Below are positions 12,379 to 37,653 of a DNA stretch of 38,705 nt, in pieces (within the stretch, counting starts at the first letter, position 1; the number at the start of each line of letters is the position of its first letter). Made by a program: the position numbers and the translations under genes. The DNA comes from Puniceicoccales bacterium. Its GTDB lineage: Bacteria; Verrucomicrobiota; Verrucomicrobiia; Opitutales; UBA953. Location: assembly GCA_031289285.1 (NCBI GenBank), contig JAITPT010000143.1, positions 1 through 38,705 of the forward strand, read 5' to 3'. Below the pieces are notes generated by a model that was not told where the DNA came from, made no database searches, and saw only the letters and a program-made list of their open reading frames with translations.

Positions 12379-12425
12379 TTAATCCGGCGTTGCGTGGGCG
12401 GGTGTTCGGCGTTTCCTCGCGGGGC

Positions 12426-13196
12426 GTGTTACAAATCGCAGACCGCTCCTTCAATTCTCGCCTGCTCGCGGGCACCGGAAAATACGCCTCTGGCGAAATC
12501 ATGGCAAAAAGCCTCGCCGCTGCTGGCTCGGAGATTGTCACCGTCTCTGTCAAACGTGTGCAATTTGGCAAAAAAGAAGACCCCATCCTCGGCTATCTCG
12601 ACAGAGAGCGCGTGTTGCTGCTCCCGAATACCTCCGGTGTGCGCGACGCCCGCGAGGCCGTCTTCGCCGCGCAAATGGCGCGTGAGGCACTGGGCGTGAA
12701 TTGGCTGAAACTCGAAATCCATCCCGACCCCAAATGGCTTATGCCCGACCCCGTAGAGACGCTCGCCGCTTGCGAGCAGCTTGCCAAACTCGGCTTCGTC
12801 GTGCTGCCCTACATCCACGCAGACCCCGTGCTCGCCAAACGCCTCGAAGACGTCGGTGCCGCCGCCGTCATGCCGCTGGGTGCTCCCATAGGCTCGAACC
12901 TCGGTCTGCGCGCCCGCGACTTCATCGCCATCATCATCGCGCAGGCAAAGGTGCCAGTCATCGTTGACGCGGGTTTGGGCGCACCCTCTCACGCCGCCGA
13001 GGCGATGGAGCTTGGCGCAGACGCGGTGTTGGTGAACACCGCGCTCGCCGCCGCCGCCGACCCCGTAGCTGCAGGTCGGGCATTTAAGCTCGCAGTGGAA
13101 GCAGGGCGCCTCGCCTTCGAGTGCGGCTTGCCCGCACAAAACTTCGCAGCCTCGCCGACCTCGCCAACCGAGAGCCTGACAGGATTTTTGGGGTGA
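12426..13196 (+). CDS. thiG: Thiazole synthase
   Basis: From GTG 12426 the product starts [20 protein letters not shown]. It also contains [29 protein letters not shown] and [17 protein letters not shown] 12390 is an alternative start. Confidence 0.93.
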
Positions 13197-13245
13197 GGGC
13201 GGGAGGGGGGTGAGCGGGCGGGCGAGGGGCGAGGAGCGGGGGGCT
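13190..13245 (+). other. G-run tract (at least 8 runs of GGG or longer in 56 nt) spanning the thiG stop
   Basis: ggggtgagggcgggaggggggtgagcgggcgggcgaggggcgaggagcgggggg. Confidence 0.7.
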
Positions 13246-13271
13246 TCTCGTGGCCAGATGGCTACTGGGTC

Positions 13272-13350
13272 GGATAGGTCGAATAGGACCTATAGGTCGT
13301 ATAGGTCGTATAGGTCTTATAGGTCTTTCTGGTCTTATGGTCTTCTGGTC
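13272..13350. repeat. 9-bp tandem array, unit TATAGGTCK, inverted relative to 10741-10816
   Basis: ggataggtc gaataggac ctataggtc gtataggtc gtataggtc ttataggtc tttctggtc... It contains the same palindrome GGACCTATAGGTC, here near its left end. Confidence 0.9.
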
Positions 13351-13379: not shown

Positions 13380-14648
13380 TTATCCGCAGCCGGTGCCGGT
13401 GCCCTTGCAGGAGAAACCGCAGCCGGAGAAACGACGGGCGAGGACAGGAGGCATGGGCTTGTCGTTAAAAACGACATCGAGGCCGTCTTCTATCATGCCC
13501 TCCATTTCAATCACACGCACACCACGCGCCTCAAGGGCACGCTTGGGCTGGGGGCCAGCAGCAGAGACGAGCAAGGCACGGCAATCATGCAGGATGTCGC
13601 CAAACTCAGCCCAACGGGCAGGACCGGCACCGGGTTCGGGAGCACGGCGGGTCTCGATGTATTTGAAACCGGAAGGCGTCTCGGCGTCTTGGCGAAAAAC
13701 CAGCACACGGGCAGCTTCGCCAAGATGCTGGTTCACGAGCATCCCCTCCTGCGAAGCAACCGCAATGTAAGGACGAGCCGAGAGGTCGGCCTCGGGACGC
13801 GAGAAACGCGCCAACGCGCCAAGATGCTCCGGCGTCATCCCCTCGTCAATGAGACCGACGGCATCGGCGCGACAACGGGCGCAGTGCGTCATCTGCGGCA
13901 GGTGGCGTTCGGCGAGCAGGCGCGTGCCCGCGACGAGCTTGGCGTCGGGCGGCGGGAGGTCTTCAAACACAGCGCCCTCGACAGGCAAAAACGCCATGCA
14001 GTTCATGATGTCGGCACCGAGAGCGGCGACGGTTTTGGCGACTTCGCCGATGTGGCTGTCGTTCACGCCGGGCATGATGATGGTGTTAATTTTCACGACA
14101 ATCCCCCGCTCCTTGAGCTGGCGCACGGCGTCGAGCTGGCGGTCGAGAAGAAGCTGGGCGGCGGGAATGCCGCGCATGGGGCGGTGGCCGTCGCGCACCC
14201 ATGCGTAGATTTTTGCGCCGATGAGCGGGTCAACGGCGTTGATGGTGATGGTGACGTGGCTGACTTCGAGCGCGGCGAGCGCGGCGATGTGCGGGCCGAT
14301 GGCGAGGCCGTTTGTGGCGAGACACAGGAGTATCTGCGGGTGGCGGCGGCGGACGGCGGTGAGCGTGGCGAGGGTCTCCTCGGCGTTGGCAAACGGGTCG
14401 CCCGGGCCGGCGATGCCGACGACTGCGATGTTCGGGACGCGCCGCAGCACGTCGTCGAGGTAATCGGCGGCGCGTTGCGGGGCGAGGACGGCACTCGTGA
14501 CGCCCGGGCGGCTCTCGTTCATGCAGTCAAACTTGCGGTTGCAGAAGTTGCATTGGAGGTTGCAACGCGGGGCGACAGGCAGGTGGACGCGCCCGTGTGT
14601 GTGGTGAGAGTCTTTGTTGAAACAGGGATGTTGACTCAGGTCTATCAT
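13380..14648 (-). CDS. nifB: FeMo-cofactor biosynthesis radical SAM protein NifB with C-terminal NifX-like domain
   Basis: Contains HPCFN, the radical SAM motif CNLQCNFCNRKFDC, GIAGPGDP, THCARCRADAVG, and then a NifX/NifB-C-like domain (YIAVASQEGMLVNQHLGEA...). The tail is GCGFSCKGTGTGCG. Confidence 0.95.
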   Translation of the reverse strand: MIDLSQHPCFNKDSHHTHGRVHLPVAPRCNLQCNFCNRKFDCMNESRPGVTSAVLAPQRAADYLDDVLRRVPNIAVVGIAGPGDPFANAEETLATLTAVRRRHPQILLCLATNGLAIGPHIAALAALEVSHVTITINAVDPLIGAKIYAWVRDGHRPMRGIPAAQLLLDRQLDAVRQLKERGIVVKINTIIMPGVNDSHIGEVAKTVAALGADIMNCMAFLPVEGAVFEDLPPPDAKLVAGTRLLAERHLPQMTHCARCRADAVGLIDEGMTPEHLGALARFSRPEADLSARPYIAVASQEGMLVNQHLGEAARVLVFRQDAETPSGFKYIETRRAPEPGAGPARWAEFGDILHDCRALLVSAAGPQPKRALEARGVRVIEMEGMIEDGLDVVFNDKPMPPVLARRFSGCGFSCKGTGTGCG

Positions 14649-14675
14649 GCGTTTGGTAGGTCTCCGTGTTGGTGG

Positions 14676-17555: not shown

Positions 17556-18277
17556 TGGGCGGGTGGCGGGTGAGTAGCGGCGGCGGTGGGAGCGGGAGCA
17601 GCGGCGGCGTTGTCAGCGACGGCGGTGTCGGCGACGGCGGTGTCGGTAACGGAAGTGGCAGTGGGTAATATATCGCGGCGCAGGACGACCCACTCGGAGA
17701 GCGGGGCGGCACCTATGGATTGGTAGAAATCGAGCGCGGGCTTGTTCCATTTGAGGGCACGCCATTCGAGACGGCTGCAACCTTGGGCGGCGGCGGCGTC
17801 GGCGGCGGCGTTGAGCAGTGCCATGCCGACGCCTTTGCGGCGCAGAGCGGGGCGCGTGTAGAGGTCTTCAAGAAACGCACCGGCGCGTCCGGCAAAAGTC
17901 GAATAGGTAGGATACCACACGGCGAAACCGGCGGGGATGCCGTGGTAGAGCGCGAGGTGGGCAAAGGCGAGCGGCTTTTCGCCGAAAAAGTGAGCGGCGA
18001 AGGCTTGCGGAGTTGACTCTATCTCGTGCGAGAGGCTCTCGTAAGCGGCAAGCTCACAGACCATTTGCCAGAGCAAAACGGCGTCGCCACGCACGGCGGG
18101 GCGGACGCGAATGGCTGGGCGGGCGGGGTCGTTGTCGGGGCGGTTTGCGGCGGCGCGGAGATTTGCGAGCGAGGCGGGGTTACACGCGCAACCCGCCAGA
18201 CTCGCGGCGGCGCAAGCGCTCGCTTCGATGCCGCAGGCGGCGGTGGGTGGCGGGTTGTCGTTGCGTGGCGTTTCCAT
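17552..18277 (-). CDS. GNAT family N-acetyltransferase (diamine/SSAT-like subfamily) with Cys-rich N-terminal extension, embedded in the nif operon
   Basis: GNAT core IRVRPAVRGDAVLLWQMVCELAAYE...LEDLYTRPALRRKGVGMALL...LEWRALKWNKPALDFYQSIGA. N-terminal extension with C15-x6-C22-x7-C30-x-C32. The start lies 19 nt after the nifK stop, and the stop overlaps the nifEN start (ATGA). Confidence 0.85.
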   Translation of the reverse strand: METPRNDNPPPTAACGIEASACAAASLAGCACNPASLANLRAAANRPDNDPARPAIRVRPAVRGDAVLLWQMVCELAAYESLSHEIESTPQAFAAHFFGEKPLAFAHLALYHGIPAGFAVWYPTYSTFAGRAGAFLEDLYTRPALRRKGVGMALLNAAADAAAAQGCSRLEWRALKWNKPALDFYQSIGAAPLSEWVVLRRDILPTATSVTDTAVADTAVADNAAAAPAPTAAATHPPPAQ

Positions 18278-18296
18278 TGTTTATTTATGGCGCTTA

Positions 18297-19670
18297 CTAC
18301 ATCACCAGTTCGAACCATTCCTCGGCACAGGAACGGTCTTTTTTATCGAAGAGTGCACTTGTTATCATGTCTATCAGACGCAACGCGCCTGTGTAGCCGA
18401 CAGTCGGGAAAAAGCGGTGCCCGACACGGTCTAAAATCGGGAAGCCGACACGCACTAACGGGATGTCTTCAACCCGCGCTATATACTTCCCGTAGGTGTT
18501 GGAAACTATCAGGTCAACGGGTTCGTTCTTTATCCATTGATGTAACTCAAAAAAGTCGGACTGTTGTTTTATTTTCGCCTCTGGAACAACTGGGTCGAGC
18601 AATTCATGGAGACGTTTTTCAAAGTGATTTCCGAGACTTCCTGTGATTACATAGACAGGCTTCATCCCAAGCTCGAGGAGGAACTGCGTGTGTGCAATAA
18701 CTTGGTCGGGGTCGCCCGCGACGGCGACTCGCTTTTGGTGGAAGTATTGCTGCATGTCGCTGATGGCGTCTATAAGGCGGGCGCGGTCTGTCTCGATTTG
18801 CGCCGCGACTGCGCCGTCTTTAGAGAAAGCGCGGAGTGTCTGTATAAAAGCGTCAGTTGCGCCGACGCCTATTGGCAATTCGAGCAAGGTGGCGGGGACG
18901 TTGTGCTTCGTCTCCAAGGTGAGTGCGCCCGGGTGCCCAGTGAAATGGCCGAGGCCGATTGTGGCTTGGCTGTCGCCTGTGCTGCGGATTTCTGGCAGCG
19001 TAGTGCCGCCTTTGGGAAACATCTCGTAAGTGCCGTCGAGGCCGCCGTCGAGCACTCCCGATGTATCAGGAAGCAAGACATTTGCGACGCCCATCAGGTT
19101 GGCGAGACGTTTGATTTCGCGCATGTCGGCGGGTTCGACAAAACCCGGGATAATGTTGATTTGCTCCTTGGGCGAACTTTTCTCCGAAAGGTATTTTATG
19201 ATAGCACTCACCATGTTTGAAAAGCCAGTGATGTGCGAACCGACAAAGCTGGGAGTGTTGGCGTGTATAACGATTTTCCCCTCTGGAACAACGCCTTCTT
19301 CGGTGGCGCGTTTGACAATCGTCGGGATGTCGTCGCCGATGACTTCGGAGAGACAAGTCGTGTGGACGGCGACGATGTCGGGATTATAAATCGTGAAGAT
19401 GTTGCGGAGCGCTTGCGTCAGATTGGCGAGACCGCCAAAGACCGACGCGCCCTCCGTAAAAGAGCTTGTTGTAGCGACAACTGGCTCTTTGAAGTGGCGC
19501 GTGAGGTGCGAGCGGTGATAAGAGCAGCATCCCTGCGAACCGTGGCTGTGCGGCATACAGCCGTGGATGCCCAGAGAGGCATACATAGCACCAATGGGCT
19601 GGCAGGTTTTGGCGGCGTTCACGCGAAGCGCTTTTCGTTCGACGATTTCGGCGGTAGTGGCGTTGAGCAT
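18297..19670 (-). CDS. nifK: Nitrogenase MoFe protein beta subunit (short N-terminus type)
   Basis: From ATG 19670: MLNATTAEIVERKALRVNAAKTCQPIGAMYASLGIHGCMPHSHGSQGCCSYHR. Length is 457 aa. The longer track ORF would overlap nifD and reads through the C/A-rich leader. Confidence 0.96.
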   Translation of the reverse strand: MLNATTAEIVERKALRVNAAKTCQPIGAMYASLGIHGCMPHSHGSQGCCSYHRSHLTRHFKEPVVATTSSFTEGASVFGGLANLTQALRNIFTIYNPDIVAVHTTCLSEVIGDDIPTIVKRATEEGVVPEGKIVIHANTPSFVGSHITGFSNMVSAIIKYLSEKSSPKEQINIIPGFVEPADMREIKRLANLMGVANVLLPDTSGVLDGGLDGTYEMFPKGGTTLPEIRSTGDSQATIGLGHFTGHPGALTLETKHNVPATLLELPIGVGATDAFIQTLRAFSKDGAVAAQIETDRARLIDAISDMQQYFHQKRVAVAGDPDQVIAHTQFLLELGMKPVYVITGSLGNHFEKRLHELLDPVVPEAKIKQQSDFFELHQWIKNEPVDLIVSNTYGKYIARVEDIPLVRVGFPILDRVGHRFFPTVGYTGALRLIDMITSALFDKKDRSCAEEWFELVM

Positions 19671-19750
19671 ATTGTGTGTGTGTTGTTTTGTTGTTGTTTG
19701 TTGTGTTGCTTTTTTGTTAAAAAGAGTGTATGTTAAGTGTGTGTTAAAAG

Positions 19751-21514
19751 TTATCCACGTTTCCAATTTTTTGCGGCACCTTCATCTTCGAAGCCACCGC
19801 CGCGAACGCGCGGCCTATAGACGGGTTTGGGCGGGACGGTGGGGTCGCTTTTCCAAGGAGCAGTGACAAGTCGCCAGACTTTTGTGTTCACCATGCGGTC
19901 TATTTCCTTGTAGAAATTCCCCGCTCCCGTGAAGGCTGCGTAGGGGCCGCTGTAATCGTAGCTGTGCAGCTGTTTGCACGGCACACCGAGTTTCTCTATG
20001 ATGAACTTCTCTTTTATCCCGGAGCCGATGACATCCGGCTTGTAGATTTCTATGAGCTTCTCCATTTCGTGGTGCGAAATATCGTCTATCACAAGACTCT
20101 CTTTGCGCATCTCTTTCATCATGCCTTCGTAGTCGCGGAAAGAAAATCCGCCAGCTTCCAACGCAGCTTTTTGCTCCTCCGTTTTGCGCGGACGGTAGCG
20201 TGTGGGGTCGGCTTCGACGGTAAGTTCCTCGATGTTACGCGAGTCGGCGTCAATTTTTATAGTGGGGAGGACATCGCGGCCTTCGTAGTCGTCGCGGTGT
20301 GCAAACTCATAGCCAGCAGCGATAACGGTCATTCCGATGTCGCGGAAGAGGTCTTGATAATGGTGTGCGCGCGAGCCGCCGACAAAGAGCGCGGCGGTTT
20401 TTCCGGCGCAGCGCGATTTGACGTCGTCCATGATGGGGCGCAGCACCGACAACTCTTGTGCGATAACTTCTTCAACACGGTCGGTGAGTTTTTTACTGTC
20501 AAAAAACTTTGCGATTTTTCGCAGCGATTTTGCGGTTGAGTTAGCGCCTATGAAGTTCACTTTGAACCAGGGAATACCGAACTTTGTTTCCATCATATCC
20601 GCCATGTAGTTAATCGAGCGGTGGCATTGCACGACGTTGAGGTCAACGGTGTGCGCCTTCACAACTTGCTCGTAAGAAATATCGCCGGAGAGTGTGGCGG
20701 TGACATGTATGCCGCATTTGCGCAACAGTGTGTCAATCTCCCAAGCGTCGCCGCCGATGTTATATTCGCCGAGCATGTTCATACGAAACTCGGCGTCGTC
20801 GGGCGTGTCGTCAAGACCGACCATGTGTTTGAAAACGCCGTTGTTTGCGATGTGGTGCCCAGCGGATTGGGAGACGCCTTTGTAACCTTCGCAAGAGAAA
20901 CCGAAAACGTTAATTCCGAGTTCCGCTTTTGCGAGGCGGCAAACGGTGTGGATGTCGTCGCCGATGAGGCCGACTGGGCAAGTCGCATAGACAGCGATGG
21001 CTTTGGGTTTGAAAATTTTGTATGCTTCGCGAATGGCGGCGGCAAGTTTCTTTTCGCCGCCGAATATAATCTCGTCCTCCATCATATCGGTTGTCATAGA
21101 GTATTGGAGATAGTTGACATCTCCCGGGCGCGGGCGGGCGAGATTGCGGCGCGTCTGCCATGAATAAAACGAACAGCCGATAGGGCCGTGCGTTATGTGG
21201 AGCACGTCGTGCATCGGGCCGATAACGACGCCTCTACAGCCGGCGTAAGTGCAGCCGCGCTGGGTGATTATTCCCGGAACGGTGCGTGTGTTGGCCGCGA
21301 TAGGCTGCGGGCTTTCCGGGTCGTTGAGAAGAAATTGTTTAGCGCGTTTTTTCTTTGTTTTATCTGGATAAATCTCAATCATCTTCTCGCGCGCCTCGGC
21401 GGCGTTAATCGAGGCGGCGTGTTCGGCGGAACTGCCGGGCGGTGGCGGCGCAAGTGCTTCGGTGTCGGTGGCGTCAGAAACGCCGGATTCTGGTTCTGGA
21501 CTAATAGAGGACAT
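19751..21514 (-). CDS. nifD: Nitrogenase MoFe protein alpha subunit (with anaerobe-type ~50-aa insertion)
   Basis: CTYAGCRGVVIGPMHDVLHITHGPIGCSFYSW, and LNVVQCHRSINYMADMMETKFGIPW (the cofactor Cys region). Insertion EADPTRYRPRKTEEQKAALEAGGFSFRDYEGMMKEM. About 35 aa of N-terminal extension. Confidence 0.96.
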   Translation of the reverse strand: MSSISPEPESGVSDATDTEALAPPPPGSSAEHAASINAAEAREKMIEIYPDKTKKKRAKQFLLNDPESPQPIAANTRTVPGIITQRGCTYAGCRGVVIGPMHDVLHITHGPIGCSFYSWQTRRNLARPRPGDVNYLQYSMTTDMMEDEIIFGGEKKLAAAIREAYKIFKPKAIAVYATCPVGLIGDDIHTVCRLAKAELGINVFGFSCEGYKGVSQSAGHHIANNGVFKHMVGLDDTPDDAEFRMNMLGEYNIGGDAWEIDTLLRKCGIHVTATLSGDISYEQVVKAHTVDLNVVQCHRSINYMADMMETKFGIPWFKVNFIGANSTAKSLRKIAKFFDSKKLTDRVEEVIAQELSVLRPIMDDVKSRCAGKTAALFVGGSRAHHYQDLFRDIGMTVIAAGYEFAHRDDYEGRDVLPTIKIDADSRNIEELTVEADPTRYRPRKTEEQKAALEAGGFSFRDYEGMMKEMRKESLVIDDISHHEMEKLIEIYKPDVIGSGIKEKFIIEKLGVPCKQLHSYDYSGPYAAFTGAGNFYKEIDRMVNTKVWRLVTAPWKSDPTVPPKPVYRPRVRGGGFEDEGAAKNWKRG

Positions 21515-21627
21515 GTTGTTGTGTGTGTTGTTGTTAAGTGTGTGAGTGAGTGAATAAATGCAAGTTGTCGGTGATGAAAAAAAAGAGGTGTAAAAAATGG
21601 AGTTGGTGGGTGCATCTGGTGCGAATT

Positions 21628-21715
21628 AAAACAACAGAAGGCGCGGGAGAAATTCTTTCCAAAGAAATTTCGGCAAACGGATTTCTGTTCACAATCCCCG
21701 CGCCTTTTGTTGTTA
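21628..21715 (-). terminator. Long intercistronic stem-loop between nifH and nifD (possible attenuator or mRNA-stability element)
   Basis: aacaacagaaggcgcggga (21630-21648) pairs with tccccgcgccttttgttgtt (21695-21714), 18 of 19 bp. The loop holds a second near-palindrome, gaaattctttccaaagaaatttc. On the mRNA the 3' arm runs into UGUUGUUUUAAUU. Confidence 0.55.
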
Positions 21716-21746
21716 AATTATCAGCACAAGCCGCGTTTTTTTGTTT

Positions 21747-22643
<897 letters not shown>

Positions 22644-23116: not shown

Positions 23117-25726
23117 TTACTTCACAGGCAGGGGTTTTATGTGCCAGATTTCGTCGGCGTATTCGCGGATGGTGCGGTCAGAAGAAAACTTGCCGACTCG
23201 GGCGGTGTTCAAAACCGCCATGCGCGCCCATTGCGCTTTGTCCAAGTAGGCAGCGTTCACGCGCTCCTGCGCCTCGACGTAGGCACGGTAATCCGCCAAG
23301 ACGAGGAAGGGGTCGCCGTGGTCGAGCAGACTGGCGACGACAGGGGCAAGCGAGTGAGGTTCGTCGGGCGTGAAATAGTCAGACGCGAGCCAGTTGAGAA
23401 CTTCACGCAACTCGGTGTCGCGCTCGTAGATTTCACGCGGGTTGTAGCCACGCGCCCAGAGGGCATGGACCTCGTTGACGTCCATGCCGAAGATGAAAAT
23501 GTTGTCCGCGCCGACTTCTTCCATGATTTCGACGTTGGCACCGTCGAGGGTGCCGAGGGTGAGCGCACCGTTGAGGGCGAGCTTCATGTTGCCCGTGCCA
23601 CTCGCCTCTTTGCCCGCAGTAGAGATTTGCTCAGAAATATCGGCGGCAGGGATGATTTGCTCGGCGAGCGTGACGCAGTAGTCGGGCAGGTAGGCGACCT
23701 TGATTTTGCCGCCGACGCGGGGGTCGGCGTTGATGCGGGCAGCGACGGCGTTGATGGCGTGGATGATGTCTTTGGCGAGGTCGTAGCCCGGGGCAGCTTT
23801 GGCCCCAAAGATGAAAACGCGCGGCGCGATGTTGAGCGCAGGGTTGTTGAGAAGACGCCGGTAGAGGGTGAGGATGTGAAGCAGGTTGAGGTGCTGACGC
23901 TTGTATTCGTGGAGGCGTTTGATTTGGACGTCGAAGAGGGCGTCGGGAGAAACTTGCACGGCGCAGAGTTTCTCGATGACGGCAGCGAGGCGCTCCTTGG
24001 CAGCGTGTTTGACGGCCATGAACTCGGCTTGGAAGGCGGGGTCGTCCGCCCATTTTTCGAGACCGCGGACAGCCTCGAGGTTCTTCGTCCAACCCTTGCC
24101 GAGGCGGGCGTCTATCAGGGCAGCGAGTGCGGGATTGCAGGCACGTAGCCAGCGGCGCGGGGTGATGCCGTTGGTTTTGTTTTGAAAACGAGTCGGCCAG
24201 AGGGCGGCGAAATCTGCGAAGAGGCTTTCGGTGAGGAGTTGGCTGTGGAGGGCGGCGACGCCGTTGACAGCGTGGCTGCCGACGACGGCGAGGTGTGCCA
24301 TGCGGACGGTCTGCACGCGGCCTTCTTCGATGAGGGAGAGGGCGCGTTTTTTGGTGTCGTCGCCCGGCCAACGCGCTTCGACGAGGGCAAGGAAGCGGCG
24401 GTTGATTTCGTAGATGATGAGGAGGTGGCGAGGGAGAACTTTTTCAAAAAGCGGGACGCTCCATTTTTCGAGGGCTTCGGGGAGGAGGGTGTGGTTGGTG
24501 TAGGCGAAGACGCGGGTGGCGATTGACCACGCGGCGTCCCAGCCGAGGTGCTCGGTGTCAATGAGCAGGCGCATTAGCTCGGCGACGGCGACGGCGGGGT
24601 GGGTGTCGTTGAGCTGGATGGCGACTTTTTCGGGGAAGACTTCCCAGCGCGCTTTGCCGTCGGGCGCGGTGTTGTCGCGCTTGAAACGCCGGATGAGGTC
24701 TTGCAGGGAACAGGAGACGAAGAAAATTTGCTGGACAAGGCGGAGTTCGCGCCCCGTGGCGGTCTTGTCGTTTGGATAAAGGACTTTTGAGTAGGTCTCG
24801 TCGGCGGTTTTTTGGCGCACGGCGTCGGCGTAGTCGCCTTGGTTGAAGAGCTGGAAGTCGAACTCGTTTGAGGCGCGAGATTCCCAGAGGCGCAGGAAGT
24901 TGACGGTGCCGGTGTCGTAGCCGACGACGGGGATGTCGCAGGGGATGCCAACGATGGAGCGCGAGTGGAGCCACGCGGGGGTAAGGTTGCCGGAGTCGTT
25001 GTAGCGCATTTCGACGCGCCCGTAGAGGGGGACGGTCTGGCAAAACTCGGGGCGGCGCACAGGCCACGGGTTTGCGGTGGGAAGCCAGTTGTCGGCATTT
25101 TCGACTTGACGGTTCTTCTCGAAGGATTGGCGGAAGAGGCCGTATTCATACATGATGCCGTAGCCGATGGCGGGGTAATCGAGGGTGGCAAGCGAGTCGA
25201 GGAAACAGGCGGCGAGACGCCCAAGGCCGCCGTTGCCGAGGCCCATGTCTGGCTCTTCGTTGAGGAGGCTGTTGATGTCGAGGCCGAGTTGGCGGAGGGC
25301 TTCGGCGGTGCTCTCGTAGATGCCGTCGTTGGTGAGGTTATTCCGCAGGAGACGCCCCATGAGGTATTCGAGAGAGAGGTAATAGACGCGGCGGGTGTTG
25401 GCGGTGTTGTGCGCAGCTTGGGTGCGGATGAGGCGGTCGAGTGTGCGCGCCTGCGCCATTTGGCAGGTGGCGAGCCACCAATCGTGGAGGCGGGCAGTAG
25501 AGGTGTCGCGGGCAAGCGAGCAGCGGAGGTAGTGGAGAATGGCTTGGCGGATGGCGGCTGGGTCGCGGCGCGGTTCCTCAGAGTAAGACTCCTCGGCAAG
25601 AGCGGCACAGGCAGGCGCGAGAGCGGGCGCGAGGGGGGACGCGGGAGCAGGCGCACGGGCGGCGGCGAGGGCGGCGGCGGTTTTGTTTTTGGCGGAGGCA
25701 GTGGTGGCGGTGGCGGATTGGTTCAT
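23117..25726 (-). CDS. glgP: Glycogen/maltodextrin phosphorylase (GT35)
   Basis: Start at ATG 25726 (MNQSATATT...). Contains [27 protein letters not shown], and the PLP site [34 protein letters not shown]. Length is 869 aa. Confidence 0.96.
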
Positions 25727-25873
25727 GGATGCGATGATGGTGTGGTGTGTGGTGATGCGGTGTGCGGTGATGCGGTGATGTGACGTGTGGTGATGCGGTG
25801 TGCGGTGTGTGAATGGTGTCGGAATGTTTGTGTTAGCAGGAACGGTGCCGCAGGAATGGGCAGCGCGGGGATG

Positions 25874-25902
25874 TATAAAGGCGAAGGGGCGGCGCGGGTC
25901 AA
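25874..25902 (-). promoter_or_regulatory. Sigma70-like promoter candidate for glgP
   Basis: The minus strand reads TTGACC, a 17-nt spacer, then TTTATA. It sits about 150 nt upstream of the glgP ATG, ahead of a C/A-rich leader. Confidence 0.45.
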
Positions 25903-25955
25903 GCGGCGGAAAGCGGCACGGGACGGCGGGGGACGGGACGGGATGGCGGGGCGGG

Positions 25956-26687
25956 TCAAAGATGTGTGAGGTCGCAGGCGGCGGCGGAGTAGTTCGTGCG
26001 GGTGGCTTTTTGTGCTTCGGGGTTTTCGAGGAAAAACGCCTTTGCTGCTTGGCGGCAGGCACGGCGCGAGTGCGCCGTCGGCAGGAAACGTCGCCAGCCT
26101 ACGCGACGGGAAATCTCCTCTTCCACCATTGGGCGGATGTAACCTTCTTTGATTTGGAAATCGCCAAGCCATTTGGCGGCTGCGACCGCTTCGGTGCTTC
26201 CGCCAGCACGGACGATGGCGTCGCGCACGGCAGCGTTGGCGTGTTTTTCGCTTTGGATCTTTATCCTAAGAACGGCGGTTGGAGGGGAAGTATTGCGAGA
26301 AGATGTTGTGGCAGATGCGCTTGGTGGATTTGTGAAGGCGCACCTGTTGGTGCGTCAAACAAAGCCAACAAGTGCAGATGCCATAACAGCTTCCGCAAGA
26401 CGACCCGACTCAACTACCGTTTTTAGGATTATAGCATTGGCGGCGGGCGAGAAGTCAGCGTTCACCTCCGTGGTTCGGAGCCGGAGGTTCTTGTCGCGGC
26501 GGCGTCCGCCCGGGTGCCCAAGCTCGTGGAGGTAGGAGTAGTTTTGCCCAGTGTGCGGCTTCCAAAACGGCAAGATTGGAGAGGTGAGGAAAGCGTTTTG
26601 TCCGTCAACTTGGACTTGGTTCGCGTAACCTTTCCTCGACAAGAAAAGGTTGAATCGGTTCTTGCGGATGTCGCTCTTCAGTTCCAA
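25956..26687 (-). pseudogene. HExxH-motif ORF (possible metallopeptidase remnant) interrupted by a MITE and truncated at its 5' end by another repeat
   Basis: The N-terminal fragment (...NYSYLHELGHPGG...FSPAANA) reads into the MITE and stops there. Removing the 165-bp element plus one copy of the 3-bp duplication rejoins it in frame with the C-terminal fragment (...IKIQSEKHANAAVRDAIVRAGG...). The apparent TTG start lies inside the HH-140 repeat. Confidence 0.45.
26264..26428 (-). mobile_element. 165-bp MITE, copy B (inverted relative to copies A and C), inserted in a coding frame
   Basis: tcctaagaacggcggttgg...caactaccgtttttagga, flanked by direct TTA/TTA. Confidence 0.9.
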
Positions 26688-26819
26688 CCCCGCGAGGACG
26701 CGGACAAATCGGGGAAGGAACTTGGGGTTCAGACGTTCGTGTTAGTCGCTAAAAATGCCCAAAATCTCGGTTTTGTAATTCGTTGAAAAACAATACATTA
26801 ACAGTCTGTTCCTTGCAAG
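26679..26819 (+). repeat. HH-140 unit, tandem copy 1
   Basis: Same head hairpin and body as 6519-6659. Confidence 0.85.
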
Positions 26820-26957
26820 TTCCAACCCCGCGAAGGCGCGGACAAATCGGGGAAGGAACTTGGGGTGTCAGACGTTTGTGTTAGTCACTAAAAATGCCCA
26901 AAATTTCGGTTTTGTAATTCGTTGAAAAACAACACATTACAGTCTGTTCCTTGCAAG
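26818..26957 (+). repeat. HH-140 unit, tandem copy 2
   Basis: Directly abuts copy 1, sharing the junction nucleotides ag. Confidence 0.85.
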
Positions 26958-27022
26958 CGCTACGATGCACCCTCCGTTTCAAAGGCTATTCTCGTATTTT
27001 CGCGCTACTTGAACGGTATTAG
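26958..27022. repeat. Isolated PAL-family arm
   Basis: cgctacgatgcaccctccgtttcaaaggctattctcgtattttcgcgctacttgaacggtatt, the same arm as at 2769-2833. Confidence 0.8.
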
Positions 27023-27168
27023 TCATGAACGAGACAAAAAACACCACGCCACAAGCAAGACGGCACGATTGTCGTCAGCACCAAATGCGTTGCCCGCGCC
27101 AGCACTGTGCTTGTGCTCATTCGTTCCCTGCTTGGGCCATGTATCGTGTCAAATATTTTTTTAGCCTA
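27022..27168. repeat. P-module copy 1 (truncated in the conserved box)
   Basis: About 95% identical to 27474-27640. The minus strand carries an A-tract, TTGACA, AGGGAA, and ATG MSTSTVLARATHLVLTTIVPSCLWRGVFCLVHD. Confidence 0.8.
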
Positions 27169-27473
27169 AACCGTGCGTGGCTTGGAGCGCTGAAGGCGCG
27201 GCTTCATAATAGCCTATGGCAACGCCATAGGATAATGGGCGGTTTCTCCACTGTGGGCTGTAAGCCCACCTTAACGCAATGGCGGTAGGCGGCGGTGGTG
27301 CGAGGGTGGCGTTCAGAACGAAGGTTGAGGCGGGCTTACAGCCCGCTGAGAACCGCTGTCGTGTATCATATTGCTTCGCGATATGCTATTATGAAGCCGC
27401 GCCTTCAGCGCTACGATGCACCCTCCGTTTCAAAGGCTATTCTCGTATTTTCGCACTACTTGAACGGTATTGG
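27169..27473. repeat. PAL-family element (core 27206-27392 plus right arm)
   Basis: Same architecture as 6660-6977. The terminal hairpin is changed to CATATTGC-ttc-GCGATATG. Confidence 0.88.
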
Positions 27474-27640
27474 TCATGAAGGAGACAAAAAACACCACGC
27501 CACAAGCAAGACGACACGATTGTCGTCAGCACCAAATACGTTGCCCGCGCCAGCACTGTGCTTGTGCTCATTCGTTCCCTGCTTGGGCCATGTATCGTGT
27601 CAAATATTTTTTTTAGCCTAGTAAATTATTCAGGACGGGG
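27474..27640. repeat. P-module copy 2
   Basis: Ends in the box ttttttttagcctagtaaattattcaggacgggg. Confidence 0.85.
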
Positions 27641-27806
27641 CATGAGCGAAACAAAAACACTGCGCCACAAGCAAGACGACACGATTGTCGTCAGCACCAA
27701 ATACGTTGCTCGCGCCAGCACTGTGCTTGTGCTCATTCGTTCCCTGCTTGGGTCATGCATCGTGTCAAATATTTTTTTTAGCCTGGTAAATTATTCGGGA
27801 CGGGAG
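27641..27806. repeat. P-module copy 3
   Basis: Ends in the box ttttttttagcctggtaaattattcgggacggg. It differs from copy 2 by an indel near the 5' end. Confidence 0.85.
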
Positions 27807-30587: not shown

Positions 30588-31622
30588 TCAGTGTTTGCGA
30601 CGGCGTAGGACACAGAGATCTTTCGGCCAATCGGCGGAAATCTCCGCATCTGCGTCGGCAAACGGGATGGGTTTGCAACCCGAGCGGCGGTTGGTCTCGC
30701 GAGTGTATTGCGCCAAGATTGCGCCCACAAACTTTGCGTCACCAATGGCACCGCCACGTGTGAACTGCGTGGCCGTCGTAAGCAGACGTTCCGAGTGGGA
30801 AAGTTTCCCGCCAGAAGCCGCGACAGCTTGGGCGGCTTCGGGAGTGATGCGGGCGGCGGACGGGTCGCCACGTTTTGCCGTCGCGCCCTTGCCAAACAAC
30901 ACAACGCGGTAGGTATCCAGCATCTCTTCGTCGCTGAGATTGTCGGAGGAAACTGCATAGCGGAGATTGCGGCGCATCGTGCCCTTGCTACCCGTTGCCA
31001 CGGCTTCGGCGTAGCCGCACCAACGGTAGTCTTTCGGGTCTGCGACAATGCGCGCACGGACGGGGTTGAGGTCAATGTAGGCGGCGGCACTTTCCATCGC
31101 GAAGAACTTGTCGCTCTGCACGAGAGTGCTCGAAAACCGCTCTGACCAAAGTGTTCCAAAACGTTCGTGTGTGCGGTTATACCAGATGGAAAACCGTTGC
31201 TTAAAGGTCTTCATGAACTCGGAGACATCGCCCATGCGACGCAGCATTTGCTTGCGCCACGCCTCGGCCTCTTCGTCGTTCTTCTTGAGCATCTCGGCGA
31301 GCACCTTGACATCGGCGGGTGCCCATTTCGTGGGCTTGGGATAAAGCACGGAGTAACGACGCAGCAGTTCTGCATCGGAGAGTTCGCCCTGTTCTGGCAC
31401 TCTGACGAGCACATGGAAATGGTTCCCCATAAGGGCGTATGTCACGACTTGGACGCCGCAGAAGTCTGCGACTTGGTGGAGTTGTTTTTGCATGATGTCC
31501 TTCTCGGCGTCGGAGAGGAAAATCTCTCCATTGACTGTTCGAGACACGCAATGAAAAACGCTGACTGAGCCGCTGGCCTTTATCCGGCGGGCACGTTGGT
31601 GTTTGGTTCTATGTTTTGGCAT
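30588..31622 (-). CDS. REP-associated-type Y1 (HUH) tyrosine transposase, IS200/IS605-like domain with long C-terminal extension
   Basis: From ATG 31622: MPKHRTKHQ... It has the HUH motif GNHFHVLV, the catalytic Tyr region AAAYIDLNPVRARIV, and WSERF. Length is 344 aa. Confidence 0.85.
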   Translation of the reverse strand: MPKHRTKHQRARRIKASGSVSVFHCVSRTVNGEIFLSDAEKDIMQKQLHQVADFCGVQVVTYALMGNHFHVLVRVPEQGELSDAELLRRYSVLYPKPTKWAPADVKVLAEMLKKNDEEAEAWRKQMLRRMGDVSEFMKTFKQRFSIWYNRTHERFGTLWSERFSSTLVQSDKFFAMESAAAYIDLNPVRARIVADPKDYRWCGYAEAVATGSKGTMRRNLRYAVSSDNLSDEEMLDTYRVVLFGKGATAKRGDPSAARITPEAAQAVAASGGKLSHSERLLTTATQFTRGGAIGDAKFVGAILAQYTRETNRRSGCKPIPFADADAEISADWPKDLCVLRRRKH

Positions 31623-31857
31623 AAGGATGAGTTCAGTTGGTTTGGGCAAAAGTGATGTTCGTCGCGAAAAAAAATGAAAAGTTAAGGATGAGTCAAGAGC
31701 CTTTTTTAACCTGGTTAAAAAATTGGAATCGGAGGGGTCGGTGTTTGGGCATGAGGATGATTTCTGGTTTGTTTGGACAGAAGAGTAATGTTCGGCGCAG
31801 GCGAAAATGAAAAGTGGAGGGGGAGTCAAGAACTTTTTTTAGCCTGGTTAAAAAATG
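31613..31857. repeat. Tandem duplication (~115-bp units, ~75% identity) of the transposase 5' end plus upstream region
   Basis: Unit A is 31613-31725 and unit B is 31741-31857. Both contain the MPKHR start on the minus strand, TTGACT, and the box ttttttWRcctggttaaaaaat. Unit B encodes only MPKHRPLRFQFFNQVKKGS. Confidence 0.8.
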
Positions 31858-31943
31858 AGGGGAGGGAGGATGAGGCTCGCATTTTTGGGAGGGGAAGTTT
31901 TTACAGGGGTATGCGCTTTGTGCCGGGCAAACGATGTGTCGAA

Positions 31944-34643
31944 ATGGCAACTGGGGAGTTCGCCCAATTCGGGGAACCGCCAGTTTCTTCCGGCTTCGGT
32001 CACGGACAACAATGGCGAGCAGAAGCCGGACGCGAATGGCACAAAGTCCTTCGTTCTCTCGTAGAAAACGCAGCAGCCACCACCACCCCTCCGGCCACAT
32101 CCTCCGCCGTTTCCCACACCACCACCCCAAACTCCACTCCGCCCTCTTCCGACTCCCCCGTCCCCACATCCGCCGCCTGCATACCCTCCCCTTCCGCTAC
32201 GTCCGCCGCCATCTCCCTCGCAGCGTCCACCGATTCCGCCGCCCCCTCTTCTCTTTCCGCCACCGCCTCACCACACACACCCATTCCCGCCTCCTCCGCC
32301 ATTCCCTCCGCCTTCACCCCCATTCCCGCCTCCATTCCCTCCGCCACCACCGACGCACCACCACCCACTTCCGCCACCTCCGCCACCCCACCGCTCACCT
32401 CCGTCCTTGCCTCTGCTTCCTTCCCCTCTGGTGCGGCGGGGCAATGGCTGTTTGAACACTCCGTTCGCACTACACTTCTTTGCGAACGCTGGACAATCAC
32501 CGCCGAGGGGCGCGCCGACCAGCTGTTCATCCCCGCCGACCCAGATATGCCGCTCGTTGTGCGCGAAATCAAAACCGTCTCCGAATCGCTGCCCCGCCCC
32601 GCTGCGCATTGGCGCGAAAACCGCCCTGCCTTTTTCACCCAACTCGCCCTCTACTGCCACGGTCTCTCGCAAATACCCGCGCACACGAAGCGCGGCGTCA
32701 CCGGCGTTCTTGTGCTCGCGGAACCCGCCACGGGCATCATCCAAGAAGTTCCGTTAGACGGTGCGCCGTCCGCTTGGCTTGCTCCACGCGCCAGCCGGTT
32801 TGCGCGTTTCGCCGAGTCGCGCTGGAACAGCCGCCTGCGCCTTGAACACCTCCGCCTCCTCAACCCCTTTGCGGAAAGTCGCGCCGAGTGGGACGTCGCT
32901 GCTGGCCAACTCGCCGCCGAAAACGCGCCCGCCATACTCCTCGAAGCGCCCACCGGTTTCGGCAAAACCTCCCTCGCTCTCGTTGACGCGCTGCACCACC
33001 TGCGCGACGGCGAAGTCTCGCGCATCGTCTATGTCACAGGGAAAAACTCTGGTCGCCTCCAAGTCCTCCGCGAGCTGTCGCGCCTCACTGAGCCGGGCGC
33101 GTTGCGTGCGCTCACGCTCCACTCGCGAGCGGAGCACGAAGTCGCTGGCGTCCCCCGCGAACCGGAGGTCTGGGTGCAGAACTGGCGTCGCGCCGCGATT
33201 GACCCCGGCGCGTTGTTCGACTCCGGCGAGACCGAGCTTGCTGCCGTCCGTGCCCTCGGCGAGCGCGTCGGCGTTCCTCCTTGGGAAATCACCAAGACAC
33301 TTCTCCCGCTCGCCGAGTTAATTCTCTGCGATTACAACTATGTTTTTTCGCCGTGGCAGGCGGGGGTTCTCGGCGGCATGGACGGCTGGGATCCCGCCGC
33401 GACGCTGCTCATCGCCGACGAGGCGCACAACCTCCCCGAGCGTGCCGCCGAAGCTCGCTCTATTGTTTGCGACGCTGCCCGCGCTGCCGACGCCCTCGAC
33501 GCCCTCCGCTACGCCGGAGTCCGTGGCGGCTGGCTGCGCGAATGGGAGGCGTGGGCGGAGTTCCTCGCTGCGCTTCCGCAGGCAAACGCGCTGGAGCCGC
33601 TTGCGCTCTACCTCGCCCGCGACCACTGCGCGGAAATCACCCGCCTCTGGGAGGAGCAAAACCCGCTTCACTACGAGCTTCCCCAAGACACCATTGACGC
33701 GCTTGAACGCCCCGCGCAGCTCCTTCCCATTTTGGAGGCGTCGCCGGAAAACTATTTTTTCTGGTCGCCGCGTCCGCGTTGTTTCCGCGCCGCCTGCCTC
33801 GACGCCGCCGTCGAGACCGGCGAAACCCTCCGCGCCTTTCACCGCGCCGTGCTCATGTCGGCGACCCTCTCGCCGCCCAATGATTTTGCCGAAGCCGTGG
33901 GCCTCTCCCTCGCCGCGTCGGCAAACACCCCGCCCACCGCGCCGCCCTCCCGTCCGCCAACCGCGCTCGCGCCGCCCGACTCCGTCTTCCTCTCGGTCGC
34001 CGCCCCTTGGCGTTTCGACGCCTACGAGGTCGCCGCAGACGTCCGTGTTGACACGCGCCTCAAAAGCCGCGAGCGCCATTTTCGCGCCACGGCGGAAAGC
34101 GTCCTCTCCCTCGCCGCCGCTGAGCCAGCCGCCGTCTTCTTCCCCTCCTTCGCCTACGCGGAAACCATCAAGACCTACATCGCCGCCCTCGACTCCGGCT
34201 TCCAAGTATTCGTCCAGCCGCGTGGTGCCACGCCCGACGAGAACGCCGCCTTCCTCACCGAGGCGTTGCTGCTTGCCCACGCCATCTTCCTCGTCGCTGG
34301 CGGTGGGCTGGCAGAGAGCGTTGACATGCTCGGCGGGCGCATCACGCGGGCGATGGTTGTCAGCCCCTGCCTGCCGGAAGTCTCTGCCGAGCGCGCCGCA
34401 AAAATGGCGTTGCGCGAACGGGCGGGCGACGGCGACCCGTTTCGCAGCGCGTATCTACTCCCCGCGTTGCGCAAAGTGAACCAAGCGCTCGGGCGGCTTG
34501 TCCGCGCCCCCGACCAACGCGCAAAGGTGGTGCTGCATTGCCGCCGCTTCGCCGACCCAAACCTCGCCGCCCTGCTTGCGCCGGAGTATCGCGGCGGACG
34601 TCTCATCCGCAACGCGCACGAGTGGGCGGAGTTCACCGCTTAA
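31944..34643 (+). CDS. PD-(D/E)xK nuclease domain fused to a DinG/XPD (Rad3)-like SF2 helicase lacking the Fe-S cysteine cluster
   Basis: Nuclease motifs: GREWHKVL, GRADQLF, VVREIKT (ExK), FFTQLALY (QxxxY). Helicase motifs: EAPTGFGKTS, ILCDYNYVF, ADEAHNL, LMSATLSP, GGGLAESVDM, QALGRLVRAPDQRAKVVL. The start is uncertain (ATG 31944, 31911 or 31773). A ~120-aa T/S/P/A-rich insert splits the nuclease domain. Confidence 0.8.
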   Translation: MATGEFAQFGEPPVSSGFGHGQQWRAEAGREWHKVLRSLVENAAATTTPPATSSAVSHTTTPNSTPPSSDSPVPTSAACIPSPSATSAAISLAASTDSAAPSSLSATASPHTPIPASSAIPSAFTPIPASIPSATTDAPPPTSATSATPPLTSVLASASFPSGAAGQWLFEHSVRTTLLCERWTITAEGRADQLFIPADPDMPLVVREIKTVSESLPRPAAHWRENRPAFFTQLALYCHGLSQIPAHTKRGVTGVLVLAEPATGIIQEVPLDGAPSAWLAPRASRFARFAESRWNSRLRLEHLRLLNPFAESRAEWDVAAGQLAAENAPAILLEAPTGFGKTSLALVDALHHLRDGEVSRIVYVTGKNSGRLQVLRELSRLTEPGALRALTLHSRAEHEVAGVPREPEVWVQNWRRAAIDPGALFDSGETELAAVRALGERVGVPPWEITKTLLPLAELILCDYNYVFSPWQAGVLGGMDGWDPAATLLIADEAHNLPERAAEARSIVCDAARAADALDALRYAGVRGGWLREWEAWAEFLAALPQANALEPLALYLARDHCAEITRLWEEQNPLHYELPQDTIDALERPAQLLPILEASPENYFFWSPRPRCFRAACLDAAVETGETLRAFHRAVLMSATLSPPNDFAEAVGLSLAASANTPPTAPPSRPPTALAPPDSVFLSVAAPWRFDAYEVAADVRVDTRLKSRERHFRATAESVLSLAAAEPAAVFFPSFAYAETIKTYIAALDSGFQVFVQPRGATPDENAAFLTEALLLAHAIFLVAGGGLAESVDMLGGRITRAMVVSPCLPEVSAERAAKMALRERAGDGDPFRSAYLLPALRKVNQALGRLVRAPDQRAKVVLHCRRFADPNLAALLAPEYRGGRLIRNAHEWAEFTA

Positions 34644-36108: not shown

Positions 36109-36546
36109 ATGGAACAGGAAACACAAACACCCAAAGTTGAGCAGGAAGTAGGCAAACCGCCTTTCCAGCCAACACCACTGCAAGACCTCTGTTATAAGGT
36201 GACTGGCTGCGCCATCACCGCGCTTAACACCGTCGGGCCGGGTCTCGATGCCAAAATCTACGAGAACTGCCTGATGATCGAACTCGCAAAACAAGGTTTG
36301 CAATTTGATTATCAACGAAAAGTGGACGTCCTCTACAGCGGACAAAAGGTCGGCGTCGTCACGCTGGGCTTAGTCGTCAACGAGCTGCTCCTCGTGGACA
36401 CCCGCTCTGTGGCGTTCTTCAACGAGACTGATTTCTCTGAGAACATCAGTTACCTCAAACTCACGCAGCTTCCTATGGTGCTCATGCTGAACTTCAAGTT
36501 CGGCAAACTCCAATGGAAAAAGATCGCCTACGACCCAAATCGCTGA
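36109..36546 (+). CDS. GxxExxY-family (PD-(D/E)xK-like) protein with substituted signature residues
   Basis: ITALNTVGPGLDAKIYENCLMIELAKQGL...VDVLYSGQKVG...LVVNELLLVDTRSV...YLKLTQLPMVLMLNF. This follows the family layout as I recall it, but reads GLDAKIY where GxxExxY is expected. Confidence 0.7.
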   Translation: MEQETQTPKVEQEVGKPPFQPTPLQDLCYKVTGCAITALNTVGPGLDAKIYENCLMIELAKQGLQFDYQRKVDVLYSGQKVGVVTLGLVVNELLLVDTRSVAFFNETDFSENISYLKLTQLPMVLMLNFKFGKLQWKKIAYDPNR

Positions 36547-36901: not shown

Positions 36902-37326
36902 CAAGTCTGCTTCGGAGGAATAGCCACAGAGAGGCGGCAGCGGTGTGGATGTGTGCAGGCGGGAGTAGTGGGTATGGTGAGTAGTGGGTATGGTGTGTGG
37001 GTGTGCTTAGCGGCAGACGAATGGCCTGATGCGTGGTGCCACTGCCCTGCAATTGATGTCACTGGCTTTTTGTAGTCAAGCAGCTTTTTTAGCCTGGTTA
37101 ATTATTCGGGAGGGGGGGGGGTGGGGGAAGTCTGCTTCGGAGGAATAGCCACAGAGATGCGGCAGCGGGGTGGGTGGGTGCAGGCGGGAGTAGTGGGTAT
37201 GGTGTGTGGGTGTGCTGAGCGGCAAACAAATGGCCTGATGCGTGGTGTCACTGCCCTGCAATTGATGTCACCGGCTTTTTGTAGTCAAGCAGCTTTTTTA
37301 GCCTGGTTAATTATTCGGGGGGGGGC
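36902..37326. repeat. Two tandem direct repeats (226 and 198 bp), each ending in the conserved box
   Basis: Both copies read aagtctgcttcggaggaatagccacagag...ggtatggtgtgtgggtgtgct...cctgcaattgatgtcac...gtagtcaagcagcttttttagcctggttaattattcggg. A third unit starts at 37327 but diverges. Confidence 0.88.
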
Positions 37327-37424: not shown

Positions 37425-37589
37425 ACCTAAAAACGGCAGTTGAATCGGGGAGTCTTGCGGAACCTGTTACGTCATCTGCACGTAGTGCTTTTGCTCGACG
37501 CACCAACAGGTGCGCCTTCACAAAAGCCCTAAGCGCATCTGCCGCAACATCTTCTCGCAATATTTCCCCTCCAACTGCCGTTTTTAGGT
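37425..37589 (+). mobile_element. 165-bp MITE, copy C, inserted at the edge of a C-arm repeat
   Basis: acctaaaaacggcagttgaatcgggg...ccaactgccgtttttaggt, flanked by direct TGA/TGA. The rejoined flank tttTGAaagcggtgtcgg matches the uninterrupted copy at 866-885. Confidence 0.92.
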
Positions 37590-37590
37590 T

Positions 37591-37653
37591 GAAAGCGGTG
37601 TCGGCGGACGCGGAGAAGCACTCCGCGCCCTCGCCACCGCACTCCAAAAAAAA
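37591..37653. repeat. C-arm family repeat, third copy
   Basis: gaaagcggtgtcggcggacgcggagaagcactccgcgccctcgccaccgcactccaaaaaaaa. Confidence 0.75.

Follow-up and report, generated by a model that had tools for sequence, protein, structure and literature searches.

What does a bacterial gene encode when it joins a RecB-like nuclease to a helicase of the DinG type, and does such a gene serve defence against foreign DNA or the repair of the host chromosome? The question is raised by a stretch of 38,705 nucleotides from a Puniceicoccales bacterium (assembly GCA_031289285.1, contig JAITPT010000143.1), called here the window, in which a gene of this kind lies next to a Y1 transposase gene. An original prediction, made from the letters of the window, had proposed the nuclease-helicase fusion and had looked for its role among defence systems. 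We find it probable that the protein is a chromosomal EndoDinG enzyme, a name used for those homologues of DinG that begin with a PD-(D/E)XK nuclease domain (PMC13650095). It would act as a metal-dependent single-stranded DNA (ssDNA) endonuclease and 5'->3' helicase, belongs to a subclade whose iron-sulphur (Fe-S) domain has become a pseudo-FeS domain, carries a long insert in its nuclease, and likely serves housekeeping repair or recombination. Domain identity, residue conservation, cysteine loss, the insert and the gene context were observed directly.

Nuclease domain

The gene and the features of its first half are as follows, with residues counted from the Met encoded at 31911:

31911..34643, + strand: EndoDinG-type nuclease-helicase gene, 910 aa plus stop (open reading frame and full-length alignment to 56 homologues)
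31911..32846, + strand: PD-(D/E)xK (RecB/Cas4-like) nuclease domain, aa 1-312, with H44, E182, D203, E219 and K221, plus Q244 and Y248
32028-32051, + strand: nuclease motif GREWHKVL, aa 40-47
32082..32438, + strand: in-frame insert rich in Ser, Ala, Pro and Thr, aa 58-176 (~120 aa), interrupting the nuclease domain between its His helix and its E182 strand
32508-32528, + strand: nuclease motif GRADQLF, aa 200-206
32562-32573, + strand: nuclease motif REIK, aa 218-221
32637-32654, + strand: nuclease motif TQLALY, aa 243-248

An alignment of 57 sequences comprised the window protein and 56 homologues. H44, E182, G200-R201-D203, E219-x-K221 and Q244..Y248 are invariant in it, and because of this invariance the motifs cannot be taken for chance matches. 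The four nuclease motifs of the original prediction were all recovered, to which E182 has to be added as a fifth catalytic residue that it had missed.

When a profile of the N-terminal region alone was compared with the PDB, the best match was to residues 2-150 of 9kqh_A, the nuclease domain of the DinG of Finegoldia magna (FmaDinG), with E=5.3e-9. In this match the positions of His, Glu, ExK, Q..Y and Asp line up, the Asp being replaced by Ala in the D75A mutant that was crystallised. The next matches were Cas4 SSO0001 (4ic1, E=0.008) and the nuclease domains of mycobacterial AdnAB (E=0.01-0.06), and many of the homologues have precomputed matches to PF12705 (PDDEXK_1). As had been proposed, the nuclease does not have the Cys cluster of Cas4 and AddB: cysteines 9, 90, 191 and 249 are unconserved, and no Cys is invariant within aa 1-312 of the aligned sequences.

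Helicase core and overall fold

The second half of the protein contains the following features:

32847..34640, + strand: XPD/DinG-type superfamily 2 (SF2) helicase core, aa 313-910, including an Arch-like helical insert at ~aa 515-612
32949-32969, + strand: helicase motif PTGFGKT (Walker A), aa 347-353
33096..33320, + strand: predicted pseudo-FeS domain, aa ~396-470, at the 4Fe-4S domain position and with zero Cys
33327-33347, + strand: helicase motif CDYNYVF, aa 473-479
33417-33428, + strand: helicase motif DEAH, aa 503-506
33858-33869, + strand: helicase motif SATL, aa 650-653
33900..33980, + strand: second, short insert rich in Pro, Ala and Thr, aa 664-690, in the second motor domain, seen in the sequence and as a dip in model confidence to 63-66
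34482-34505, + strand: helicase motif VI, QALGRLVR, aa 858-865

The full Rad3-type motif set had been listed before, and every member of it was found; APTGxGKT and DEAH are invariant in the alignment and QAxGRLVR nearly so. Pfam detects DEAD_2 (E=2.6e-7) and Helicase_C_2 (E=3.5e-19). The NCBIfam models for rad3, DinG and YoaA gave partial matches far below their cutoffs (72 bits against 247 for the XPD/Rad3 model TIGR00604), and dinG_rel aligned with the C-terminal helicase part only (~aa 709-872, 19.9 bits against 547.7). The PADLOC model typeIV_DinG (PDLC01439) matches aa 324-878 with E=6.6e-54; we rejected this match as evidence of a CRISPR or defence function, since it covers the helicase core only and the Csf4 model fails.

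A sequence search of the PDB with the protein again gave 9kqh_A as the best match (E=2.1e-21), followed by Thermoplasma XPD at ~3e-16. The AlphaFold2 (AF2) model built on the alignment has a mean predicted local distance difference test score (pLDDT) of 85 and a predicted template modelling score of 0.83, and Foldseek placed 9kqh_A first among PDB structures (E=6e-36, 769 aligned columns, template modelling score normalised to the target 0.72), then XPD (~1e-26), Escherichia coli DinG (~1e-19), CasDinG (~1e-16) and Staphylococcus aureus ExoDinG (~1e-15). The entry 9KQH is therefore the best match of both halves of the protein, in sequence and in fold, at an identity to FmaDinG of ~19% in the Foldseek alignment. 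Profile, fold and invariant residues agree with what had been predicted, namely a Cas4/RecB-like PD-(D/E)xK nuclease and a DinG/XPD helicase on one polypeptide.

Relationship to known nuclease-helicases

The EndoDinG subgroup was named in a review and classification of the DinG family (Cheng, CSBJ 2025; PMC11981726), and FmaDinG (PDB 9KQH) was its first member to be characterised structurally and biochemically (Li et al., Cell Mol Life Sci, July 2026; PMC13650095). FmaDinG is an ssDNA endonuclease that prefers Mn2+ and needs H40, E54, R73, D75, E88 and K90; it is also a 5'->3' helicase on 5'-tailed substrates, and it digests deep into duplex DNA in an ATP-dependent manner, an activity abolished in an ATPase-dead mutant (PMC13650095). 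Every one of its catalytic positions is kept in the window protein. The statement that the known bacterial DinG fusions carry a DnaQ-type exonuclease is thus out of date, as the PD-(D/E)xK-DinG arrangement was classified in 2025 and solved in 2026; the architecture is not new, and the window protein is a variant of a known family.

With FmaDinG and the other EndoDinGs the protein shares the domain order, that is, the nuclease, then motor domain 1 with the inserted FeS-position and Arch domains, then motor domain 2, as well as the catalytic set H, E, D and ExK plus Q..Y. Among the EndoDinG features, the nuclease catalytic set and the XPD-like SF2 core are present, and the FeS domain with its four cysteines (CCCC) is absent. 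It differs from FmaDinG in this lack of Fe-S cysteines, in the ~120-aa disordered insert of the nuclease and in its low overall identity. For Opitutales and Puniceicoccales the review lists only canonical DinGs with four cysteines (4C), and these orders are absent from its EndoDinG list (PMC11981726), as EndoDinG has not been listed for Verrucomicrobiota.

Other nuclease-helicases are less similar. CasDinG (Csf4) of type IV-A CRISPR-Cas systems shares the XPD-like helicase and a cysteine-free pseudo-FeS domain (PMC11981726), but it has a small helical N-terminal domain instead of a nuclease and is encoded with csf genes, whereas the window protein has a nuclease and no cas genes; the fold match to CasDinG is ~20 orders of magnitude weaker than that to FmaDinG. 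The ExoDinGs, such as the DinG of S. aureus and of Bacillus, are also nuclease-DinG fusions in which degradation is coupled to translocation, some of them with a pseudo-FeS domain. Their nuclease, however, is an N-terminal DnaQ-like (DEDD) 3'-5' exonuclease and not a PD-(D/E)xK enzyme; no DnaQ/DEDD domain was found in the window protein, where ExoDinG models match ~aa 709-872 only, far below cutoffs. Archaeal and eukaryotic XPD/Rad3, the second-best structural match, have the same core fold, Arch domain and motif set, but also a 4Fe-4S cluster, whose Cys ligands are absent here, and no fused nuclease. Finally, Cas4, AddB, AdnAB, Dna2 and EXO5 share the PD-(D/E)xK core with its His helix, D, ExK and QxxxY, yet they carry an Fe-S cluster of their own and work with SF1 helicases or Cas1 partners, while the nuclease of the window protein is joined to an SF2 motor of the XPD type.

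A conserved pseudo-FeS domain

The absence of the 4Fe-4S cysteines from the helicase was borne out: from Walker A to DEAH the sequence has a single Cys, C473 of CDYNY, and the first and last ligand positions are occupied by Glu (EHEV) and Pro (VPPWE). Neither the window protein nor any of its 26 closest homologues (>=41% identity) has a Cys in the FeS region, and more distant homologues (30-40% identity) keep three or four, in the patterns EHCxNxxFxCxxxxCxYL...ICPYE or HTCxxxxxC...CPYE. In a neighbour-joining tree, a rough one built on BLOSUM distances and with no support values, the Cys-free sequences group together in a single clade within the Cys-bearing ones, with a few extra Cys-free deep branches; tentatively, the Fe-S cysteines have been lost independently at least twice.

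Within the Cys-free clade the mean pairwise identity of the FeS-position region (53%) is close to that of the whole helicase (52%) and exceeds that of the Arch region (34%). The motifs DDPe.wr.NW and GVPPWEIT are conserved in the clade, and the region is modelled with confidence (pLDDT ~87-96). Because it is as conserved as the helicase and the model is confident, alignment and model indicate that this region is a conserved pseudo-FeS domain, as in CasDinG and some ExoDinGs, and not one in decay. EndoDinGs have been described as retaining the canonical CCCC FeS domain, all six EndoDinG entries of the review table being "4C" (PMC13650095, PMC11981726). What is new here is a pseudo-FeS clade of EndoDinG, of which the classification and structure papers record none for the subgroup.

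Low-complexity inserts and the deposited gene call

About 70% of the residues of the insert at aa 58-176 are Ser, Ala, Pro or Thr. It is encoded by short C-rich tandem repeats (period 9-30 at 32276-32403) and separates H44 from E182 by 138 aa, compared with 17 in typical homologues and 57, 39, 24, 23 and 21 in the nearest relatives. AF2 predicts it to be disordered (pLDDT <50 at aa 63-160) and packs aa 1-57 onto the nuclease core with a pLDDT of ~90. Its third-position GC (0.73) is close to that of the rest of the gene (0.75). Homologue P0002 also has an insert at the same site, and its identity to the window protein is 63% over aa 1-57, 65% over the nuclease core and 68% over the helicase; the N-terminus has remained under selection since the insert arose, because P0002 has the insert too and aa 1-57 are conserved to the same degree. 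From sequence and model, we read the insert as a tolerated expansion of a surface loop from repeats, and not as a lesion that splits the gene.

The glycogen phosphorylase of the window (longest open reading frame 23117-26062, - strand) has a ~255-aa N-terminal extension with an Ala/Pro/Thr-rich tract at aa 111-157, provided that this longest frame is the true gene. It is the only other gene of the window with such a tract; low-complexity inserts could not be established as a trait of the genes of the window, this extension being the only similar case.

The + strand frame is open without interruption from 31773 to 34643. The original prediction placed the start at 31944, but the ATG 33 nt upstream, at 31911, is the likelier one, giving 910 aa, because the N-termini of the homologues follow the pattern MRFxPGxRR(l/i)E(l/i)SAxEFAxFG and translation from 31911 yields MRFVPGKRCVEMATGEFAQFG (MRFVPGKR...). 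A scan for promoters and terminators around the gene found none above shuffled expectation.

The deposited gene call, P0001, is shorter: it comprises 698 aa, and starts after the insert with MPLVVREIK, so that three of the five catalytic residues of the nuclease (H44, E182 and D203) are left out. The insert is probably the cause of this truncation. The call for a relative, P0013 (L085:7001-8860), is short as well: it covers 619 aa and leaves 560 bp upstream uncalled; the expected length in the clade of P0001 and P0013 is ~770-910 aa. It seems that gene callers lose the nuclease domain of these proteins because of the inserts that repeat expansion has produced in the clade, and automatic annotation thus under-reports the nuclease-helicase architecture.

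Distribution and gene neighbourhood

The homologues are labelled Puniceicoccales, Opitutales or Opitutae. When one genome per species was scanned, at least 553 genomes had a relative, a count that possibly includes other DinG-like proteins, and nearly all of the best 80 of them are labelled Opitutae or other Verrucomicrobiota. The N-terminal profile recovered 151 clusters (at 50% identity) at E<=1e-30 and 420 at E<=1e-10, the full-length ones measuring ~765-800 aa. No close relative was found in plasmid and phage collections, where the matches were distant, confined to the helicase core and below 32% identity throughout.

Neither cas, csf, known defence or prophage genes nor a CRISPR array were found among the open reading frames of the window scanned with Pfam, and the window is an ordinary piece of chromosome. 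Its genes encode sugar-phosphate isomerase-like proteins, 5-formyl-tetrahydrofolate cyclo-ligase, a formyltransferase, KAS, FabG, a ThiO-like oxidoreductase and ThiG; then nifB-nifEN-GNAT-nifK-nifD-nifH, glycogen phosphorylase, a solute-binding protein and a GFO/IDH/MocA oxidoreductase; and, around the EndoDinG gene itself, the Y1 transposase, a PD40/TolB-like protein and PDDEXK_3. The loci of four close relatives, in which no cas or defence genes were found either, have differing housekeeping neighbourhoods (GAPDH and RNase HII; AsnC and amylomaltase; GFO and URO-D; and the like).

We also surveyed the neighbours at 80 Opitutae loci, grouping them by clustering. A same-strand block, HIT-phoH-7TM_HD-ybeY-DUF502-X-endoDinG-pyrR-pyrB-pyrC, was found, in which X is a divergent RecO-like gene of ~205 aa. 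In 47 of the 80 loci (e.g. L026:7092-7796 and L039:7039-7743) X ends where the EndoDinG gene starts. The RecO signatures of X are weak but consistent: RecO_N was detected in 11 of 19 members (best 5e-5) and TIGR00613 in 8 of 19 (best 4e-7), and its profile gave a colinear match to the RecO structure 8ab0 with E=0.34 only. The pairing occurs in Cys-free loci (L002-L013) and Cys-bearing loci alike, and this linkage suggests, at the level of gene order, a functional link between RecO and EndoDinG. A repair or recombination role is likely because the orthologue lies directly downstream of recO in other Opitutae.

The expected association with defence, type IV CRISPR or prophages was not borne out: the window holds metabolic and nif genes only, the close relatives lie among housekeeping genes, and more distant relatives in Opitutae are syntenic with recO, ybeY, phoH and the pyr genes. 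A context of this kind speaks for a gene of repair or recombination that is passed on vertically, and against a mobile module for defence. It had been foreseen that the architecture might turn out to be a common housekeeping repair protein of the phylum, and as far as commonness and context are concerned this is largely what was observed.

Transposase gene and repeats

30588..31623, - strand: Y1 tyrosine transposase gene associated with repetitive extragenic palindromic (REP) elements (RAYT), detected by Pfam Y1_Tnp and NCBIfam REP_Tyr_transpos; likely start ATG 31623

The RAYT gene is divergent from the EndoDinG gene, across a spacer of ~290 bp. A 133-bp tandem duplication (31612-31856, 1.9 copies, 80% identity) copies the 5' end of the transposase gene (MPKHR...) and its upstream region. 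The divergent pairing noted earlier thus exists in the window; however, the Y1 transposase is absent beside the EndoDinG gene in the four close relatives, and Y1_Tnp is not among the conserved neighbours of the Opitutae loci, so that the pairing is probably incidental. The repeats that had been noted are present as well, but they are dispersed throughout the window and not specifically around the EndoDinG gene, and the description of its surroundings as an accessory stretch was wrong.

The dispersed repeats form intergenic families of 50-200 nt, direct and inverted, with 80-98% identity (2200-2850, 6330-7000, 26260-27800 and 37426-37594). They contain palindromes and resemble REP sequences or miniature inverted-repeat transposable elements, which is consistent with a REP-associated Y1 transposase. 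Seven intergenic copies of a 44-nt motif, GTCAAG....TTTTTTAGCCTGGT(T/A)AA..ATT, are found at 2153, 27599, 27764, 31692, 31825, 37075 and 37284, two of the seven in the spacer between the RAYT and EndoDinG genes; the motif could be a terminator, a promoter or the end of a repeat element.

Alternative explanations

A stand-alone or type IV-like defence helicase-nuclease, comparable to CasDinG and carried in an accessory island, is the reading that the PADLOC match, the shared loss of cysteines (PMC11981726) and the nearby transposase gene and many dispersed repeats would favour. We regard it as improbable. The PADLOC match spans the generic helicase core alone, and the curated Csf4 model TIGR03117 reaches 19 bits against a cutoff of 400; the fold matches to FmaDinG (6e-36) and XPD (1e-26) lie far above that to CasDinG (~1e-16). 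Defence genes of any of the kinds looked for are missing from the window and from beside the relatives, the synteny with housekeeping genes is fixed in 47 of the 80 Opitutae loci, close homologues do not occur on plasmids or phages in the collections searched, and the repeats are not centred on the EndoDinG gene. Cooperation with the divergent Y1 transposase, for example in processing the ssDNA intermediates of REP/RAYT elements, is less probable still, indeed very unlikely. Y1 transposases act on ssDNA, and the two genes lie close together, with the tandem duplication in their spacer; but none of the four close relatives has the transposase beside the gene, nor is it a conserved neighbour in the Opitutae survey.

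It is also unlikely, if slightly less so than a defence role, that the nuclease half is decaying and the product is a helicase of 698 aa, or that the whole gene is a pseudogene. The public gene calls of P0001 and P0013 agree with decay, as do the silence of Pfam on a nuclease domain and the disorder of the insert in the model. Yet no stop interrupts the frame from 31911 to the end of the insert, and the nuclease residues, H44 among them, are all retained and do not vary in the alignment. In the comparison with P0002, which shares the insert site, conservation of aa 1-57 is on a par with that of the remaining protein, and AF2 packs these residues on the core; the third-position GC of the insert matches that of the gene.

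Several points weigh against a chromosomal EndoDinG repair enzyme as well. Pfam sees no nuclease in the full protein, in its N-terminal 320 aa or in a version with the insert deleted, and for this reason the nuclease assignment is based on the comparison of the family profile with the PDB, the fold search and PF12705 in the homologues. If translation in vivo began at the start of the 698-aa form, H44, E182 and D203 would be missing and the product would be nuclease-dead; in the full-length form the insert adjoins the catalytic His and Glu, where it could hamper or regulate cleavage. Biochemical work on the family is confined to FmaDinG, which became insoluble when its Fe-S cluster was disrupted by mutation of two Cys (PMC13650095); by analogy, a Cys-free relative might behave differently from FmaDinG. 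Lastly, the recO-like gene was found neither in the window (tblastn) nor at the loci of the four close relatives, and because of this the repair role is extrapolated from more distant orthologues.

Other features of the window

A small stand-alone PDDEXK_3 protein (E=4e-24) is encoded at 36109-36546 (+ strand). Its gene follows the EndoDinG gene at a distance of 1.5 kb, shows no evident relation to it and overlaps the longest-frame extent of the TolB-like gene. Downstream of it, at 36903-37325, apparently non-coding local duplications of 80-138 nt (94-96% identity) are spaced by 209-225 bp. A tandem array of ~23 copies of a 17-bp unit, with 87-94% core identity, lies at 6927-7317, upstream of a DUF3261 gene. 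Two inverted arrays of a 9-bp unit (TATAGGACC-like), at 10715-10842 and 13238-13347, flank the thiO-like/thiG pair (10835-13196); a Rfam scan of the whole window detected no family, the thiamine pyrophosphate (TPP) riboswitch included. The nitrogenase cluster at 13380-22571 (- strand) comprises a nifB-like radical SAM gene, a fused nifEN-like gene of 959 aa, GNAT, nifK, nifD and nifH, and because of it the source appears to be a diazotrophic Puniceicoccales-like verrucomicrobium.

Proposed mechanism and implications

We infer the enzymatic activities of the EndoDinG protein, their coupling and its role in repair by analogy with characterised relatives. By homology to FmaDinG, the motor domains would load on a 5' ssDNA tail and move 5'->3' with ATP; the duplex would be unwound and the displaced strand passed to the nuclease site, which consists of H44, E182, D203, E219 and K221, with processive resection of DNA as the presumed outcome. 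The Opitutae/Puniceicoccales subclade has lost the four Fe-S ligands and kept the domain as a conserved structural pseudo-FeS wedge, and the window protein has in addition gained its disordered insert, which repeat expansion produced within a nuclease surface loop. In the cell, the enzyme would serve housekeeping DNA repair or recombination and probably not defence against phages or plasmids.

A more specific proposal, which we hold only tentatively and consider rather less likely to be right than wrong, is that the whole Cys-free clade works without an Fe-S cluster, in contrast to FmaDinG with its loss of solubility, and that the EndoDinG of Opitutae is the resection nuclease-helicase of the RecO-dependent pathway of RecA loading. 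The in vivo role of the family has been stated to be unknown, and the recO-endoDinG linkage provides a testable lead to its function; if the proposal is true, the EndoDinG family would gain its first physiological role through this gene pair. The Cys-free clade, for its part, is a natural test of the purpose of a cluster that has been proposed to be essential for stability and to act as a redox sensor.

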